From positions 160,001-224,000 of the forward strand of contig CAWAKC010000003.1 of NCBI GenBank assembly GCA_963782525.1: 64,000 nucleotides of DNA, read 5' to 3'. Below the pieces are notes generated by a model. It saw only the letters and a list, made by a program, of their open reading frames with translations, ran no database searches and was not told the DNA's origin. This stretch comes from Candidatus Bathyarchaeota archaeon (GTDB lineage: Archaea > Thermoproteota > Bathyarchaeia > Bathyarchaeales > Bathycorpusculaceae). The translations under genes and the position numbers were made by a program. How positions within the stretch are numbered: position 1 is the stretch's first letter; every line of letters starts with the position of its first letter. Positions 32,001-51,583 of this stretch are shown here, one piece after another.

Positions 32001-33743
32001 CTAAATATCCACGACTTCGCTAACTGAGGTTGCTTGTTCAGGCGACTTTTCGCCTCTCCACCTCTTGAACCTTGGAAAACGCAGTGACAATCCACGCTTT
32101 TCTTCGGTATGCCAATTACAGGTATGCACTGGACTCTGGGTAACCTCAAAACCTAACACTTCAACTACATATTTTGGAGCAAACCAATAATCCGGAAACA
32201 TCTCCTTGTTAACAGCAACTCTCGCAGGCTTCTCGCCTACTTTTGTATCTTCAAGTTTTTTTGGTAGGCTGAAAAGTTGTTTGTCAGAAAAGCCGCTTCC
32301 AAGCTTACAAACAGTCTGGAAAACGTCCTCACTCCTATTGTATGCGGCGCACAACAATGCTCCATAGGTTCCGCCTCTTTTGCCCTTGCCTGCGTATGCA
32401 CCAACCACAAATAGGTCAAGGGTATCTGTAAGTTCGGAACTATAGCTTGGTTTCCATTTAATCCAAAACCAACCACGCCTCCCAGCTTGATAGTAAGAAT
32501 CGCCCGCAGTTGACTTGCACACAATACCTTCCAATCCTCTTTCTAAGCAATCCTGAAAAAAATCGTCGATTTCTTCTATTTGGGTGCTTACCACTCGACT
32601 AGCTATAGCTATTCGCTTGTTGTTTTCCACAATTTTTTCTAGTTTGCTCCTCCGCTGAGGATAACTTGTTTTTACGCAAGATTTTCCATCAACATAGAGA
32701 ACGTCAAAAAGCATGTATTTGACAGGACTCTTCTCCGCAAACTCTTCAACATTGTACTTTCTTTTTCTCTGCATAAGCTTCTGAAATGAATCGAAAGCTT
32801 CTTTTTCAAAATTGTAAGCCACAATTTCTCCGTCAAGAATTGCCTTTTTAGCCAATATCTGCTCGTGTACTTGATCAACAATTATTGGAAATTGATCAGT
32901 GACATCTGTTAACCTTCTGGAGAAAAGCTTGACTGAATCGCGGTTCTTATGAGCCTGAATTCGTTCTCCGTCGTATTTCTCTTCGGCAGCTATTTCCTCA
33001 GACTTCATATGTTCCGTTATTTCAGATAGCTTGGAAACGCGTTGAGCCAACATTGGCTGTATTGGCTTACCTAAAGAAATTCGAATATGCTTGACCCCGC
33101 TTAACCCGTTTCCTGCTAGGATTTTGGCGACGTAGCCTATATCAGAGCAGAAATTATAAGCCTCCTCGAGAGGCGCACGCTTTTGCTTGGACCCGAGAAA
33201 GGTAACTGCAAGAGCATCCAGCAGCGTCATATCCGCCACTCCAAAACGCATGTTGCCCAAAGCAAGCCTGATTATGTACTTTCTTTCGTGAGGAGTTGCC
33301 CCAGCCAAAATATTAGTCAAAGTCTTCTTTTTGAAATCTTGAGAAATAGGTCCTTTGGCTCTGGCAATCTTTAAGAATTCTTTGTGTAAACCGTTCACAG
33401 AGATGTTCTCTTTGAGTGAGAAATCTTCAATTTCCTTTTTTGTTGTCTTGTTGATTTTTGAAGCTACTGTTCCTAGGTCGCCTAGTTTTTTCAATTCATT
33501 TTCGACTTCAGTTTCATCCATTCCAAAGGCAAGAGAAACAGCCGACTTGGCGATTTCGCTGCCTATTCCTATCTGCAAATTCTCATACGCAGCTACAACC
33601 TCTCCAAGTGCGAAGTAGCATACAATATCGATGTTGCTGGCTGTGGCTTTTTTCAGCAATGAAACTAACGTTTGAATCATTGCTTTCTTAGATGAGGTTT
33701 TTTCTAGTTTTTCAAAGTATTCAACAAGGCTTGAAAAACGCAA
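32001..33743 (-). CDS. lig: ATP-dependent DNA ligase
   Basis: EEKYDGER, LDGEIV, LEGIVCK, WIKWK, SLRFPRF. Confidence 0.97.
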   Translation of the reverse strand: MRFSSLVEYFEKLEKTSSKKAMIQTLVSLLKKATASNIDIVCYFALGEVVAAYENLQIGIGSEIAKSAVSLAFGMDETEVENELKKLGDLGTVASKINKTTKKEIEDFSLKENISVNGLHKEFLKIARAKGPISQDFKKKTLTNILAGATPHERKYIIRLALGNMRFGVADMTLLDALAVTFLGSKQKRAPLEEAYNFCSDIGYVAKILAGNGLSGVKHIRISLGKPIQPMLAQRVSKLSEITEHMKSEEIAAEEKYDGERIQAHKNRDSVKLFSRRLTDVTDQFPIIVDQVHEQILAKKAILDGEIVAYNFEKEAFDSFQKLMQRKRKYNVEEFAEKSPVKYMLFDVLYVDGKSCVKTSYPQRRSKLEKIVENNKRIAIASRVVSTQIEEIDDFFQDCLERGLEGIVCKSTAGDSYYQAGRRGWFWIKWKPSYSSELTDTLDLFVVGAYAGKGKRGGTYGALLCAAYNRSEDVFQTVCKLGSGFSDKQLFSLPKKLEDTKVGEKPARVAVNKEMFPDYWFAPKYVVEVLGFEVTQSPVHTCNWHTEEKRGLSLRFPRFKRWRGEKSPEQATSVSEVVDI

Positions 33744-34073
33744 GGTATCTCCTTGACAAGGTTATCAAGAGTGGATAAAAAAGATTTTCGGACAGATCCA
33801 ACCTTGCACGGCACTCTATTGCCTGTACTTCCAGAGTTCCCCTTGTGGATTCCGCCTACGATAATGATTATCACTGCTTTAGCAGTGTCTAAAATTTAGA
33901 CAAATAGTTCATTAGGTTTTAGCTTTGTCTCTGTCTCTCTACGGCGTAATCCTTTTTGACGAATTCGAGGCTGAAAAACTGGCGGTTTGAGATTCGGGTT
34001 CCAGACCTGAATGGGCCCGCGCTTGATAATAGCGTCTGATTAACAAAACACTGTGCCATTAAGCGCGCGGAAT

Positions 34074-34763
34074 CTAGTAGTATTTCTTTAAAAGGTTCTG
34101 AGAGTCTGACGCCAACTTTATGCTTCTCGAAATCCGTACGCCTTTCCAACATAGTTTGAAGGCTTTTTGTTTTTTTGAAACCAAGCTCCAATTAGCTAAT
34201 TCAAGGTCACAAACCGACGCTCGATCCTGCGGATTCTCCAACTTACACATCTGACCTCTACTCAAGTTTTCAAAAACCCTTCTAAAAGGGCGCATGGAAT
34301 TGTTATGGCAAGAAATCGCCACATTGCCTGGGTTTTGCTTAAGCCACTCTGTGAGTTGGTCAAGAAACGAAATTACGCGTTTTTCAACCATCTCCAAACT
34401 CTCGCCACCAGGTGGACCAAAACCATAGCCCCGGTGAATTCGAGCGTACCAATCAGGATTTTCATCCTTCATTTTTCTTTTGTTTCTGCCTTGGAGTAAA
34501 CCGTAGCAGCGTTCAATGAGGCGGTCGTCGATGAAAACTGGAACTTGCGTGCGGTCCTGGAGTACGATTTCAAGGGTTTTTCTGGCTCGTTTCAAATGTG
34601 AGGTAAAAGCATAATCAATTTGGTATGGTTTGAGTTGTTCAGAGGTTTCCTGTGCCTGGGAAAGCCCCTTCAAAGTAAGTTCAGAGTCACGCCAGCCAGA
34701 AAATACCCCGCGACTGTTATCAAACGTTTCAGCATGCCGAAAAACAAACAGCTTACAAATCAT
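34074..34763 (-). CDS. Histidine phosphatase / phosphoglycerate mutase family
   Basis: RHAET (RHG variant), ERCYGLLQG, PPGGESL, SCHNNSMR. Confidence 0.88.
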   Translation of the reverse strand: MICKLFVFRHAETFDNSRGVFSGWRDSELTLKGLSQAQETSEQLKPYQIDYAFTSHLKRARKTLEIVLQDRTQVPVFIDDRLIERCYGLLQGRNKRKMKDENPDWYARIHRGYGFGPPGGESLEMVEKRVISFLDQLTEWLKQNPGNVAISCHNNSMRPFRRVFENLSRGQMCKLENPQDRASVCDLELANWSLVSKKQKAFKLCWKGVRISRSIKLASDSQNLLKKYY

Positions 34764-34842
34764 ATTTTCCAACCAGGCAAATTGAGTTCGATCAACAGAT
34801 AGGTTAATTCTATTTCGCTGTTTCTGTTTTTTAGGCACACCG

Positions 34843-49866: not shown

Positions 49867-50205
49867 TAAAAAACCACTTCGTATAGTGTAGCGGATGCCT
49901 AAATAACCTTCACAAAAGTCTTACGTTGCCAGCGTAGGGAAGTTTCCCGTACGTTCCCTATTTTTCTCTATTACATAAAATTGGATTGATGGAGGCTTCT
50001 TAGGGGGATGAGCGCAAATCGCGGCTTGAATGGTTGTTTATTGTTTGAGTGGTTAACATAAAACACAAACGTTCCATCCATATCATTCACCGCTATAGCA
50101 TCATTAGCTTTTTATAATATATTTCTTGCCTAGCTACCTTTTTGACTTTTTTAACATGAACAAATAGAGCATGGAAAAATGCAAAAAATCATAGTTTTCA
50201 TATAT

Positions 50206-50274
50206 TTACCAGTCCTCTTCTTCCCAATCTTCTTCGGTTGGCTCTTCTTCCCCTTCCTCCTCTTCCTCAAACAT
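50206..50274 (-). CDS. 22-aa hyperacidic micropeptide
   Basis: MFEEEEEGEEEPTEEDWEEEDW; TATA-like CTTATAA and SD-like GTGAG/GAGG upstream. Confidence 0.55.
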   Translation of the reverse strand: MFEEEEEGEEEPTEEDWEEEDW

Positions 50275-50404
50275 GCCTCTTTCAACTCACTTTTTAAAAA
50301 AACGTATTAGTTACTATACTTATAAGGTTTAATTGAAAAAAGAAGCAGAAGCGAGCTAAACTTATCCACCCAACGCTTCAACACACTCTTGATGCATCTT
50401 CCTT

Positions 50405-51583
50405 CTATAGAGCCTTAAATGATTCAAACCATCTGTCGTATTGCGCCAGCATGTCAATGGATACACTGGGCTTTCTTTCTTCGAGTATCTGCCTAAAATC
50501 CTCCATCGTCAACGGCCGTGGCTTGGCCCTTCTGTCGCTTGCCTTACCTGAATCAAAGAATTCGCCGATGAGTTTCAGCTGTGCCGACTGGTTGAGATCT
50601 CTTATGTCGCTTCCTGAGAATCCCTCTGAGAGTCTCGCGAGCTCCCGCAGCTTAACATCTGGAGCAAGTTGAAGACTGGCAGTGTAGAGCTTGAACATCA
50701 TCAATCGTGTATGGCGCTCAGGCAGTGAGACCAGAATTCTTTTCTGAAATCTTCTTATGAAAGCCCAGTCCAAATCCCAAGGCTTGTTAGTCGCTCCAAT
50801 CACGTACACGTGAAGGTTCTTGCCTTTGTCTAAGATACCATCCATCTCTTTCAAAAACTGGTTGCGAACACGGATTTCGCCGCCTACCTCATTTGCGTGT
50901 TTTCCCATCAAAGAATCAAGCTCATCGACGAAGATTATTGCAGGCTTTCCTTCCAACGATGTTTTCCTTACTTGACCAAACAGGCGTGCGACATTCTGTT
51001 CACCTTCACCCATCCATTTTGACATTATCGAAGCCGCGTCAATTGAGACGAAAGTAGCATCTATTTCCGTAGCGACGGCTGCTGCAAGCAATGTTTTCCC
51101 GCAACCTGGCGGTCCGAAGAACAATATTCCCCGTGGCCATCCTAATGGAAACAGGTCGGGTCTCTGAACAGGATAGAGTATTGCCTCCTTCACCGCCTTC
51201 TTTGCGGGGGCCAGTCCAACGACTTCCTCCCATTTCACGTTGAGCTTCTCTGTACCTATCAGTTCTTCGTAACTGGATTTGCCGCCTTCACTCTTTTTGG
51301 TTTCACCCTCACGCCCGCTATATCTAACTTCTGCGTGAGGTTGTTCGCGCGGCACACCTAGGGCGCCTTGAATCGCCTTTATGCGTTCTTGGTAGGCGAT
51401 CGCTTTTTGCACGTAGACTTTGTTCAAGTCGTATTCAGGATAGAGTTTAACAAGTTGCAGTAGGCTTTCTATGGATTTCTGGTACATGATTATTGCCATG
51501 CCCCTTGAGCCTTGCTTGTCCAAGCGCACTGCTTCCGACGCGTAGTTGGTTGCATTCTTCTCAAGCTCTTGGGAAGCACTCAT
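50405..51583 (-). CDS. cdvC: Vps4/CdvC AAA ATPase with MIT domain
   Basis: N-terminal MIT helices; [38 protein letters not shown]. Confidence 0.93.
   Translation of the reverse strand: MSASQELEKNATNYASEAVRLDKQGSRGMAIIMYQKSIESLLQLVKLYPEYDLNKVYVQKAIAYQERIKAIQGALGVPREQPHAEVRYSGREGETKKSEGGKSSYEELIGTEKLNVKWEEVVGLAPAKKAVKEAILYPVQRPDLFPLGWPRGILFFGPPGCGKTLLAAAVATEIDATFVSIDAASIMSKWMGEGEQNVARLFGQVRKTSLEGKPAIIFVDELDSLMGKHANEVGGEIRVRNQFLKEMDGILDKGKNLHVYVIGATNKPWDLDWAFIRRFQKRILVSLPERHTRLMMFKLYTASLQLAPDVKLRELARLSEGFSGSDIRDLNQSAQLKLIGEFFDSGKASDRRAKPRPLTMEDFRQILEERKPSVSIDMLAQYDRWFESFKAL

Follow-up and report, generated by a model that had tools for sequence, protein, structure and literature searches.

A tRNA-Phe-linked island in a Bathyarchaeia genome carries a recurrent module of additional core-gene copies

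Here, we describe a 22-kb island at window positions 30243-52427, at the 3' end of a tRNA-Phe gene in a Bathyarchaeia genome; the window is the whole stretch of 64,000 nt that was analysed (C3:160001-224000). The island comprises two units, A and B, with the following features.

30243..30288, plus strand: second copy of the 46-nt direct repeat, 98% identical, core at 30246-30258; distal island boundary
30289..41309, no strand: unit A, heterogeneous cargo (Pfam; repeats)
30631-30927, minus strand: PRC-barrel gene (Pfam, 26.7 bits against a cut-off of 21.2)
31270-31434: MITE-like repeat (repeat search)
32001..33743, minus strand: ATP-dependent DNA ligase (ligase-x), third and divergent copy (three ligase domains by Pfam; TIGR00574, 475 bits against a cut-off of 218)
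34074..34838, minus strand: histidine phosphatase (His_Phos_1, Pfam)
34843-35331: orf162, a unit A ORF
35483..36511, minus strand: protein with four CBS domains (Pfam, NCBIfam)
36809-37201, plus strand: wHTH protein (Pfam)
37574-38602, plus strand: CorA Mg2+ transporter (Pfam)
38615-38859: IS remnant (repeats)
39000-40562, minus strand: NHL-repeat protein (Pfam)
41310..41355, plus strand: 46-nt direct repeat at the junction of units A and B, containing the 13 nt of the tRNA-Phe 3' end (41313-41325) and then a shared element end of 30 nt
41383..43074, plus strand: IS element, DUF772 and DDE_Tnp_1_6 in two ORFs, 28 nt inside unit B
43075..52414, no strand: unit B, recurrent module of zinc-ribbon ORFs, orf117, Rpo12-like ORF, Cdc48-x, TBP-x, CdvC-x, and orf105
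43749-44159, 45052-45384, 45648-45806, 48486-48626, and 48999-49151: small zinc-ribbon ORFs
45648-45806, plus strand: 52-aa zinc ribbon
45834-46037, plus strand: Rpo12-like paralogue (PDB matches; rpoP identity)
46092..48260, minus strand: Cdc48-x, intact, N domain and two AAA domains (Pfam; TIGR01243, 1050 bits against a cut-off of 803)
48486..49151, minus strand: two small zinc-finger ORFs (48486-48626, 48999-49151) and spacer, co-travelling with the module
49306..49866, minus strand: TBP-x, the genome's third TBP (PF00352, two TBP repeats, E 5e-57)
50405..51583, minus strand: CdvC/Vps4-x, MIT, AAA, and Vps4_C domains (Pfam)
52415-52427: tRNA-Phe 3' end, integration target and proximal att core (sequence)
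52415..52491, minus strand: tRNA-Phe(GAA) (ARAGORN; Rfam, 56 bits; sequence)

The window contains three copies of the terminal 13-mer of tRNA-Phe, in one orientation and at a spacing of ~11.07 kb (0 copies expected, based on 100 shuffles), and the remainder of the 2.87-Mb genome contains none, which bears out the earlier note's description of the units as att-bounded. Collinearity with three related genomes (G001, G002, and G012) stops at 30216-30240, i.e., at the distal boundary, and junctions related to the 46-nt repeat are present in G001, G002, G003, G010, and G012. For 10 of the 20 congeners searched, a single contig holds both the mfn-NitroR-(o194) flank and tRNA-Phe, with a gap of 0.07-4.5 kb; the gap is 22.2 kb in the genome described here (G000). 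The closest relative, G010, holds other cargo of ~7.4 kb, ordinary metabolic genes, between the same end sequences. At only 13 nt, the att core is short. Profile searches of the window for an integrase gave no match to PF00589 or PF16795, and the sole recombinase-type gene in the window by Pfam is the IS transposase; a second, inverted copy of this IS element (99% identical) lies at C3:230941-232631. Similarly, the surroundings of the att-like sites in G001, G002, and G003 yielded no integrase. IS and MITE debris surrounds the island genes, and an attP-like arrangement in G002 (C4:1242-1352) sits in a tandem array adjoining tRNA-Leu(CAG), not on a circle. We infer that the island moved by att recombination, with the integrase acting in trans or since lost.

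The cargo of unit A is mixed. Ligase-x, which the earlier note correctly called a DNA ligase, has the N-terminal DNA-binding, adenylation, and OB domains. It is 42% and 29% identical to the genome's own paralogues, its closest counterpart among 30 relatives reaches 48%, and relatives at 74-82% were found on metagenome contigs only. The protein previously read as a CBS-HPF factor has four CBS domains and a 54% identical paralogue at C4:131685-132692, but neither Pfam nor NCBIfam detects an HPF/RaiA-type domain, or anything beyond CBS, in it; the translation dormancy proposed as one of the programmes of the island is therefore not supported. The PRC-barrel gene belongs to the island but lies outside the interval 32001-51583 to which it had been assigned. 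No family match was found for orf162 in searches that included Pfam and NCBIfam. Of unit A, only the ligase, the CBS protein, and a PRC-like ORF were encountered together elsewhere, on one metagenome contig that looks chromosomal, and recurrence comparable to that of unit B was not seen. The range also holds non-informational cargo (the histidine phosphatase, the wHTH protein, CorA, the NHL-repeat protein, and the IS element), and the idea that the whole of 32-51.6 kb is one kit is not supported.

In unit B, the genes called Cdc48, TBP, and CdvC from the letters alone are what they were taken for. Cdc48-x has CDC48 N domains and both AAA domains, and its Walker A and B motifs can be read in the translation; TBP-x has both TBP repeats, with NCBIfam equivalog scores under the cut-offs (235 against 270); CdvC-x has MIT, a single AAA, and Vps4_C domains, and its top NCBIfam match is cell_div_CdvC at 494 bits, under the equivalog cut-off of 650. 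Walker motifs, the MIT domain, and the DNA-kinking stirrup phenylalanines of TBP are conserved in alignments. The tiny Zn-finger ORFs are likewise present, as five small zinc-ribbon ORFs within 43749-49151. Rpo12/RpoP is a zinc ribbon (CxxC...CxxC) of about 45 aa with a basic C-terminal tail. The ORF assigned to it is Rpo12-like, based on its best four PDB matches, all to archaeal Rpo12/P and spanning the full length (E 0.004-0.03), and on 55% identity over 42 aa to the genome's rpoP (C7:290572-290697), but it scores 17.3 bits with Pfam PF03604, under the cut-off of 24; it bears a 21-aa N-terminal extension. The block 45648..46037 has 86-89% nucleotide identity to copies in G003 (two), G013, and G034 (two). 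The loss of usual operon neighbours holds for cdvC: a Snf7-family match, as expected of ESCRT-III (cdvB), is absent from all of contig C3, and the primary cdvC (C4:114164) lies downstream of three cdvA/B-like genes in a cdv operon. Numerically, cdc48 and cdvC are indeed GC-richer than their flanks (0.47-0.48 versus 0.35-0.42), but because the primary copies have equal GC, this is uninformative on foreignness. Altogether, the observation in the earlier note is partly confirmed.

Cdc48, TBP, CdvC, the ligase, the CBS protein, and the Rpo12-like ORF all have other copies in the genome, and identity to the island version is 73% for Cdc48, 73% and 64% for the two other TBPs, and 75% for CdvC. In the trees, island Cdc48, TBP, and CdvC fall outside the vertical clades of the genus. 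Specifically, ten Cdc48-x are monophyletic (support 100), with family f12 as their sister (97), and are separate from the clade of the genus (100); five CdvC-x are monophyletic (99) and nest with cdv-operon copies from L166-L169 (99); and eight x-linked TBPs are likewise monophyletic (99) and separate from the TBP1 of the genus (99). The primary TBP1 of three other genera, located via synteny, also differs from the x copies. The paralogues and these phylogenies support that the informational genes of the island are additional, foreign copies, which removes the refutation that the earlier note had itself formulated, namely that they are the sole vertically inherited ones.

Of 201 family genomes, 11, representing 7 genera, contain Cdc48-x at 89-94% nucleotide identity, and all five carriers from other genera that were tested also hold a primary Cdc48. 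Among the matches listed, and with two candidates scored per genome, CdvC-x is present in at least 3 of the 201; G033 and G034 have two CdvC genes each. At least two of CdvC, TBP, and Cdc48 lie within 8 kb of each other at 9 of 13 loci examined, and the three x genes recur alongside Rpo12-like ORFs in further genomes, other genera included. Alba and an SSB-like protein are encoded at related loci, as is a second rpoB in three genomes; the extra rpoB is split in G146 and G229. The distribution of the x genes is patchy and of low frequency. The module adjoins tRNA-Phe here, tRNA-Ala in G003, and tRNA-Gln plus an integrase fragment in G152. In G033 and G034, no tRNA gene lies within 40 kb of it and, therefore, tRNA integration is not its only mode of movement. 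Because gene order and composition differ from genome to genome, transfer may involve individual gene cassettes and not a fixed kit.

Synonymous divergence (dS) among the x copies amounts to 0.12-0.26 for Cdc48-x and CdvC-x and to 0.22-0.84 for TBP-x, compared with 1.15-1.45 or saturation among the primaries compared. Recurrence of the CdvC-TBP-Cdc48 set and this low divergence therefore support the mobile module that had been proposed. dN/dS is 0.13-0.38 between x copies, values that are inflated by their short divergence, and 0.036-0.044 for primaries. Thus, selection on the x copies is ~5- to 10-fold relaxed relative to the primaries and still purifying. The earlier note would have yielded to a unique combination under relaxed selection; the combination recurs, and selection is relaxed yet purifying. 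A raised dN/dS is as compatible with relaxed constraint or slow decay as it is with new function. The x genes are full-length in all aligned copies (10 Cdc48-x, 5 CdvC-x, and 8 TBP-x). Metatranscriptome contigs from three libraries (at least two studies) are 92-99% alike to Cdc48-x, TBP-x, CdvC-x, and their spacers; this comparison covered window positions 45600-52400, and the contigs, in which carried-over DNA is possible, give neither strand nor level.

It is unlikely that the extra genes are passive hitch-hikers, i.e., near-neutral duplicates being lost from a hot spot downstream of tRNA-Phe that gathers DNA fragments of related archaea. The 5- to 10-fold higher dN/dS, the patchy and infrequent distribution, the IS/MITE debris, the split rpoB copies, and the ordinary metabolic genes in the G010 slot are all in keeping with such a history; however, every aligned x copy is full-length with dN/dS well below 1, and the same unrelated genes are found together repeatedly across genera and contexts, a pattern not expected from random capture. 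Far less probable still is an artefact, with the apparent second copies arising through mis-assembly or mis-binning of a metagenome genome that mixes two populations. The assembly has 12 contigs and an estimated contamination of 2.7%, and some related contigs are evidently mis-binned (e.g., bathyarchaeal cdv operons under Acidobacteriota names), but the island is embedded in a 463-kb contig and flanked on either side by syntenic core genes, its boundaries match the tRNA-end repeats, and the single-contig genomes G003 and G214 hold x copies and primaries on one contig.

The module might also be the core of an integrative plasmid or virus-like element whose own TBP, Rpo12, and RpoB redirect transcription to the element, and whose own Vps4 and Cdc48 arrest division or bud DNA-carrying vesicles for transfer. 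Its spread between genera far outpaces host-gene divergence, it resides in islands adjoining tRNA genes, and TBP genes are present on three haloarchaeal virus records. Moreover, published accounts describe a divergent TFIIB, possibly altering promoter specificity, in thaumarchaeal ICEs and a provirus-derived element (PMC5797428) and ESCRT-dependent Sulfolobus vesicles that carry plasmid DNA (preprint 10.1101/2021.02.09.430445). Nevertheless, we consider such a take-over doubtful. Among the ORFs of the window and sister loci scanned, Pfam detects no replication, conjugation, or intact integrase genes and no capsid, packaging, or other viral hallmark genes; scans of IMG/VR with CdvC-x and TBP-x, which detect close relatives only, found none; and the modules are fragmentary and reshuffled.

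We favour, with a probability of roughly 55%, a decayed two-unit integrative island at the tRNA-Phe 3' end, in which unit B is a horizontally circulating module of extra core genes for CdvC/Vps4, TBP, Cdc48, and an Rpo12-like subunit; in its sister-genome versions, Alba, the SSB-like protein, and a second rpoB are also present. This module would have been built from host genes of several Bathyarchaeia lineages and have spread among genera within one family, adding to and never replacing the resident primary copy. The intact proteins would act as alternative, accessory subunits of the host machinery: variant initiation complexes may arise from TBP-x and Rpo12-x, and Cdc48-x and CdvC-x may provide extra unfoldase and ESCRT-III-disassembly capacity. 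Thereby, host or element would gain a regulatory or proteostatic option, comparable to that provided by haloarchaeal megaplasmids, with their several TBP and Cdc48 genes. The interpretation in the earlier note is partly supported: it holds for the mobile module, of which a reprogramming role (stress or dormancy programme, or host take-over) is hypothetical. For core transcription, protein-unfolding, and cell-division genes to travel as a set between related archaea is unusual.

With classical tRNA-targeting islands of the tyrosine-recombinase type, the island shares insertion at a tRNA 3' end, tRNA-end direct repeats, two units accreted in tandem, and a lack of the insertion in close relatives. 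The cargo of classical islands consists of defence, metabolic, or resistance genes; this island, by contrast, carries informational paralogues, has a very short 13-nt core, and is without an integrase gene. Haloarchaeal megaplasmids (e.g., the pNRC replicons of Halobacterium salinarum) likewise are mobile or extrachromosomal DNA with additional TBP and Cdc48-family genes. TBP matched 87 plasmid records, with all genera among the matches listed being haloarchaeal and at most seven places per record, and Cdc48-family genes matched 51; for CdvC, no plasmid record matched at E <= 1e-60. However, these are large replicons of another phylum, whereas the island is tRNA-linked and chromosomal; their genes are at most 48% (TBP) and 55% (Cdc48) identical to the island copies, and a linked CdvC-TBP-Cdc48-Rpo12 set was not seen on them. 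The haloarchaeal tailed viruses HRTV-9 and HJTV-2 resemble the module in being mobile genomes with their own TBP, but this TBP is 30-33% identical over 77% of the protein, and the virus genomes have structural genes, while no viral hallmark was found in the island. Finally, ICEs and a provirus-derived element of Ca. Nitrosocaldus cavascurensis are, like the island, integrated archaeal elements with a basal initiation-factor paralogue, a divergent TFIIB proposed to alter promoter specificity (PMC5797428). There, the paralogue is TFB rather than TBP and is accompanied by recognisable conjugation or viral genes and integrases; in the island and its related modules, such backbone genes were not found, and the cargo extends to RNA polymerase subunits, chromatin and ssDNA-binding proteins, and two AAA+ machines.

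We conclude that the region at 30243-52427 is a genomic island or cargo of a mobile element, unusual for the informational and AAA+ genes that it carries. It is tRNA-linked, repeat-bounded and decayed, and its unit nearer tRNA-Phe (unit B) exemplifies a mobile set of core genes, derived from hosts, that occurs across the family. The window is part of a 463-kb contig (C3) in a genome of 2.87 Mb in 12 contigs (G000); below, x marks an island-type gene and primary the resident copy of a genome. The two tandem units of the slot and their main genes, the latter identified by Pfam and NCBIfam unless stated otherwise, are as follows.

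30289-41309: unit A
32001-33743 (-): ATP-dependent DNA ligase (ligase-x)
35483-36511 (-): protein with four CBS domains
41356-52414: unit B
45834-46037 (+): Rpo12 paralogue ORF (solved-structure matches; Pfam score below cut-off)
46092-48260 (-): Cdc48-x
49306-49866 (-): TBP-x
50405-51583 (-): CdvC/Vps4-x, with MIT, AAA and Vps4_C domains

The ligase, Cdc48, TBP and CdvC/Vps4 genes named in the earlier note are, based on these domains, real. Its Rpo12 is supported by structure, in that the four best solved-structure matches of the ORF are archaeal Rpo12/P over the full length, and by 55% identity to the genome's own rpoP on C7, but not by a Pfam score above the cut-off. The proposed "CBS-HPF factor" keeps its CBS domains but lacks an HPF domain in 35483-36511, and the PRC barrel has a sole match (30631-30927) that falls outside the range of 32001-51583 in which it had been placed. 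The PRC-barrel gene lies within a 0.68-kb repeat (30334-31013) with three other copies at 82-85% (C10:204920, C5:83543 and C10:1532). Several zinc-ribbon ORFs of 46-136 aa are interspersed among the genes from ligase to CdvC, and the same range contains non-informational genes for a histidine phosphatase, orf162, a wHTH protein, CorA and an NHL-repeat protein as well as an IS. orf162 has no family match in Pfam or NCBIfam, and a protein-cluster search returned unnamed clusters only. The IS (1692 bp; 41383-43074) has an inverted twin at C3:230941-232631 (99% identical); the two copies, 28 kb apart, flank unit B, both tRNAs and the right flank, and an inversion between them is possible. On the right, IS-twin side, synteny with G010 and with G012 (both related genomes) differs. 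A MITE-like repeat of ~160 bp (31270-31434) has at least six further copies at 94-97% (C12, three on C1, C11 and C3).

The island lies at the 3' end of tRNA-Phe(GAA) (52415-52491(-)), the last 13 nt of which are repeated in the same orientation at 41313-41325 and 30246-30258. This 13-mer has three matches in the window compared with none in 100 shuffles, and none elsewhere in the genome; the two distal copies are embedded in a 46-nt direct repeat (98% identical). The left flank comprises methanofuran-biosynthesis genes, a kinase, a nitroreductase and a 194-aa ORF, and its collinearity with G001, G002 and G012 stops at 30216-30240, just short of the repeat start at 30243. At 23006-27876, this conserved flank is formed by a methanofuran-biosynthesis-type cluster for a 4-HFC-P synthase, a PLP decarboxylase, an ATP-grasp protein, a hydantoinase-like protein and a kinase. 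In 10 of 20 congeners (G001, G002, G003, G004, G005, G007, G009, G013, G014 and G032), the flank and tRNA-Phe are on one contig and separated by 0.07-4.5 kb (e.g., 0.25 kb in G014 and ~70 bp in G009), compared with 22.2 kb in G000; in the remaining 10, they are on separate contigs or were not found. In G010 (primary Cdc48 nearly identical to that of G000), the same end sequences (52354-52414 and 41325-41392) enclose ~7.4 kb that is unrelated and encodes a regulator, a hydrolase, a CDP-alcohol transferase and an alcohol dehydrogenase. The gaps in the congeners together with the different cargo between the same ends in G010 argue that the slot is a hot spot filled by tandem units.

Integration would be by recombination within the 13-nt core, through a recombinase that may have acted in trans or since been lost. 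No integrase or tyrosine recombinase (PF00589, PF16795) was matched within the window, and no recombinase was found near the att-like sites of G001, G002 and G003; moreover, IS fragments and the MITE-like repeat are scattered through the island. The missing recombinase and the IS/MITE debris count against an active element. An Rfam search of 28-57 kb (E <= 1) returned two tRNAs and nothing else; therefore, a stretch at 40815-40905(-) that by eye resembles a broken tRNA (GAA loop and T-arm-like end), and that neither ARAGORN nor Rfam recognises, is an unconfirmed remnant. In G002, a 1.9-kb unit with ends as in units A and B adjoins tRNA-Leu(CAG) (L029; G002:C4:1242-3278) and is followed by a junction of the same form as attP of unit B. 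tRNA-Leu(CAG) is not among the 37 tRNAs of G000 (ARAGORN). To the right of the island, tRNA-Phe and tRNA-Val, immediate neighbours in several congeners, are separated by a 907-aa PQQ/beta-propeller surface-type protein (52805-55528) from a family with dozens of paralogues in the genome. Further on, a heliorhodopsin gene (57977-58714; Pfam E 6.7e-80) lies in a block that is 92% identical in nt in G012 (G012:C8:95752-99345) and missing in G010, in which the homologue of C3:232617 onward directly adjoins tRNA-Val.

The island genes are not the sole vertically inherited copies, an option excluded by the other copies in the genome and by the trees. As the earlier note had supposed in calling the cargo paralogs, there are second copies of Cdc48 (C1, 73% aa), TBP (C1, 73%; C3:133363, 64%), CdvC (C4, 75%), the ligase (C9, 42%; C1, 29%) and the CBS protein (C4, 54%). 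Its description of the genes as stripped of operon neighbours holds for cdvC: three cdvA/B-like genes precede the C4 copy and none the island copy. GC richness fails as a sign of foreign origin, x copies and primaries being similar in GC. Among 31 genomes (18 congeners, 12 genomes from other families of the order and G000), all congeners that gave a Cdc48 match carry a single primary copy, and a second type is present in G000 and G004 only; TBP typically occurs twice per congener, with the island type confined to G000 and G003; a second CdvC is found in G000 alone; and nothing matches ligase-x above 48%. In phylogenies, ten island-type Cdc48 group together in one clade (SH-aLRT 100); its sister is the only Cdc48 of family f12 (97), and the genus clade (100), which includes the C1 copy, is separate. 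The clade of five island-type CdvC (99) nests with the cdv-operon copies of L166-L169 (99), at a distance from the genus CdvC clade (100). Eight x-linked TBPs form a clade (99) separate from genus TBP1 (99); the primary TBP1 of G214, G146 and G117, recognised by synteny with the G000 TBP1 locus, is a gene distinct from the x copies. Because Cdc48-x, CdvC-x and TBP-x come from different donors, we suggest that the set was assembled and not copied from a single locus. Relatives of ligase-x at 74-82% are on short metagenome contigs only, and those in other archaeal phyla are at 52-64%; a search of genome contigs gave Woesearchaeota only (44-49%), and one of metagenome contigs gave two at 76%. One of these two has a family-X polymerase, HSP20, a CBS protein and a PRC-like ORF as neighbours, apparently an ordinary chromosomal context. 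Three loci with a typical bathyarchaeal cdv operon (L168, L197 and L243) carry Acidobacteriota MAG names and are probably mis-binned.

Recurrence in other genomes holds for unit B. In a scan of species-representative genomes, CdvC-x was found at 92-93% aa in two genomes, each retaining a primary CdvC: in G033 (L164) together with TBP-x (84%) and Cdc48-x (91%), in the order and orientation of the window, and in G034 (L165) together with Cdc48-x (94%) and two blocks of Rpo12-like and zinc-ribbon genes. In a DNA search of 201 family genomes, in which scoring was limited to two candidates per genome and the listing lacked 65 rows so that counts are lower bounds, Cdc48-x is present at 89-94% nt in at least 11 genomes of seven genera, vertical Cdc48 being ~70% alike, and CdvC-x at 93-95% nt in at least three. 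All five tested carriers from other genera have, besides a primary Cdc48 (73-75% aa), one of the x type (87-92%), and each has three to six TBP genes. At 13 loci, a tally leaving out the Cdc48-x contig-end fragments of G103, G137 and G154, CdvC-x, TBP-x and Cdc48-x lie within 8 kb in two; CdvC-x and Cdc48-x pair in two, TBP-x and Cdc48-x in four, and TBP-x and CdvC-x in one; the x gene is alone in four, two of which are cut by contig ends. Based on ORF clustering of 13 retrieved loci and 41001-52500 of the window, Alba recurs as a partner at 8 loci, an SSB-like OB-fold protein and a 56-aa zinc protein at 6 each, and a GT4 glycosyltransferase at 5. The gene for the 56-aa zinc protein also adjoins primary TBP1 (C1:163347-163514 of G000). 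A second rpoB adjoins Cdc48-x in three genomes.

L245:7559-10930 (G033): second rpoB, intact
L260:5362-8734 (G146): second rpoB, split
L266:2503-5875 (G229): second rpoB, split

The G033 copy encodes 1123 aa with all seven Rpb2 domains, and RpoB-x is 92% identical in aa to the product of the sole rpoB of G000. All three genomes also have the operonic rpoB, which in G033 is read in three frames. Co-occurrence of the set in other Bathyarchaeia, which the earlier note suggested checking, holds for unit B across genera of the family, and the mobile module that it proposed is supported and extends wider than the window shows; altogether, its observation was largely right.

TBP-x/Alba-x units occur at several places per genome in G117, G195, G214 and G095; in these genomes, L272, L276-L280 and L282 have small units of TBP-x and Alba-x with or without the SSB-like and 56-aa zinc proteins. 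In G003, TBP-x lies ~1.8 kb past tRNA-Ala with an SSB-like gene and an extra Alba. In G033 and G034, the module has no tRNA within 40 kb, and gene order varies between genomes, arguing that the transferable unit may be smaller than the whole set. At a locus in G152, no repeat of the tRNA-Gln end was found within 20 kb. A contig of DNA run X1 links window positions 45665 and 48460 on opposite strands; the arrangement is the same in G003, G013 and G034, where an Rpo12-like block abuts the 48430 spacer, and a search for inverted repeats around Cdc48 in the window that could explain it gave none that was convincing. IMG/VR scans with CdvC-x and TBP-x, by a method that detects close relatives only, gave no relative.

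The aligned x copies are all full-length and retain Walker A and B, the MIT domain and the TBP stirrup residues; the C-terminus of Cdc48-x is unlike that of the primaries. Between hosts, dS is 0.12-0.26 for Cdc48-x and CdvC-x and 0.22-0.84 for TBP-x, with dN/dS of 0.13-0.38, values inflated by the short divergence; for primaries of the same hosts, dS is 1.15-1.45 or saturated and dN/dS 0.036-0.044. The low dS and a dN/dS below 1 yet above that of the primaries indicate recent spread under purifying selection with clear relaxation. Three metatranscriptome libraries (peat and wetland, from at least two studies) contain contig pieces 92-99% alike to Cdc48-x, TBP-x, CdvC-x and spacers and far nearer the x copies than the primaries; these contigs have no strand given and may include carried-over DNA, and uncovered parts of 45600-52400 do not indicate silence.

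We favor, at a probability of roughly 0.55, the reading of a tRNA-linked island that integrated via the 13-nt core and whose core-gene module has an accessory function. The x proteins would work with host partners: TBP-x and Rpo12-x may form variant initiation complexes, and Cdc48-x and CdvC-x may add Cdc48 and Vps4 capacity. The purifying selection and the retained motifs are consistent with this. A selfish take-over kit, which the spread between genera would suit, we consider unlikely. That the extra copies are passively decaying would fit the relaxation, the IS debris and the split rpoB copies; full-length x copies and a dN/dS below 1 speak against it, and we regard passive decay as about as probable as take-over. 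An artefact of a mis-assembled or mis-binned genome is very improbable. More speculative than take-over or decay, and doubtful, is a new kind of archaeal mobile element in this family, with host-derived TBP, Rpo12, RpoB, Alba, SSB, Cdc48 and Vps4 as its conserved content and not replication or integration genes. Such an element would set up a compartment of its own for transcription and chromatin, and would maintain or transfer itself by ESCRT remodelling, through arrest of division or budding of vesicles. If so, it would be a take-over kit of cellular genes, against the rule that informational genes stay put.

Core information-processing genes are usually held to resist horizontal transfer. 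Here, an intact second TBP, RNAP subunit, Cdc48 and Vps4 travel together between genera at 89-95% nt, host copies being only ~70-80% alike. If the copies are functional, uncultured Bathyarchaeia would be able to gain alternative parts for basal transcription, proteostasis and division in one step, a new way in which regulation could diversify or a mobile element could manipulate its host. The finding makes testable the role of an orphan Vps4 or a third TBP in an archaeon.

In a full-text literature search, with supplements outside its scope, no account of a linked CdvC-TBP-Cdc48-Rpo12 module came up. TBP, Cdc48 and ligase go unmentioned in the main text of a study of Bathyarchaeia viruses (PMC10848311), and the text of an ESCRT survey lacks the words mobile and horizontal and names Bathyarchaea once, for CdvA-like proteins (PMC11188069). 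On plasmid records, CdvC is absent at E <= 1e-60; Cdc48-family genes are on 51 records and TBP genes on 87, the genera listed for the latter being all haloarchaeal, and TBP is on three haloarchaeal virus records. A divergent TFIIB is encoded by thaumarchaeal ICEs and a provirus-derived element (PMC5797428).
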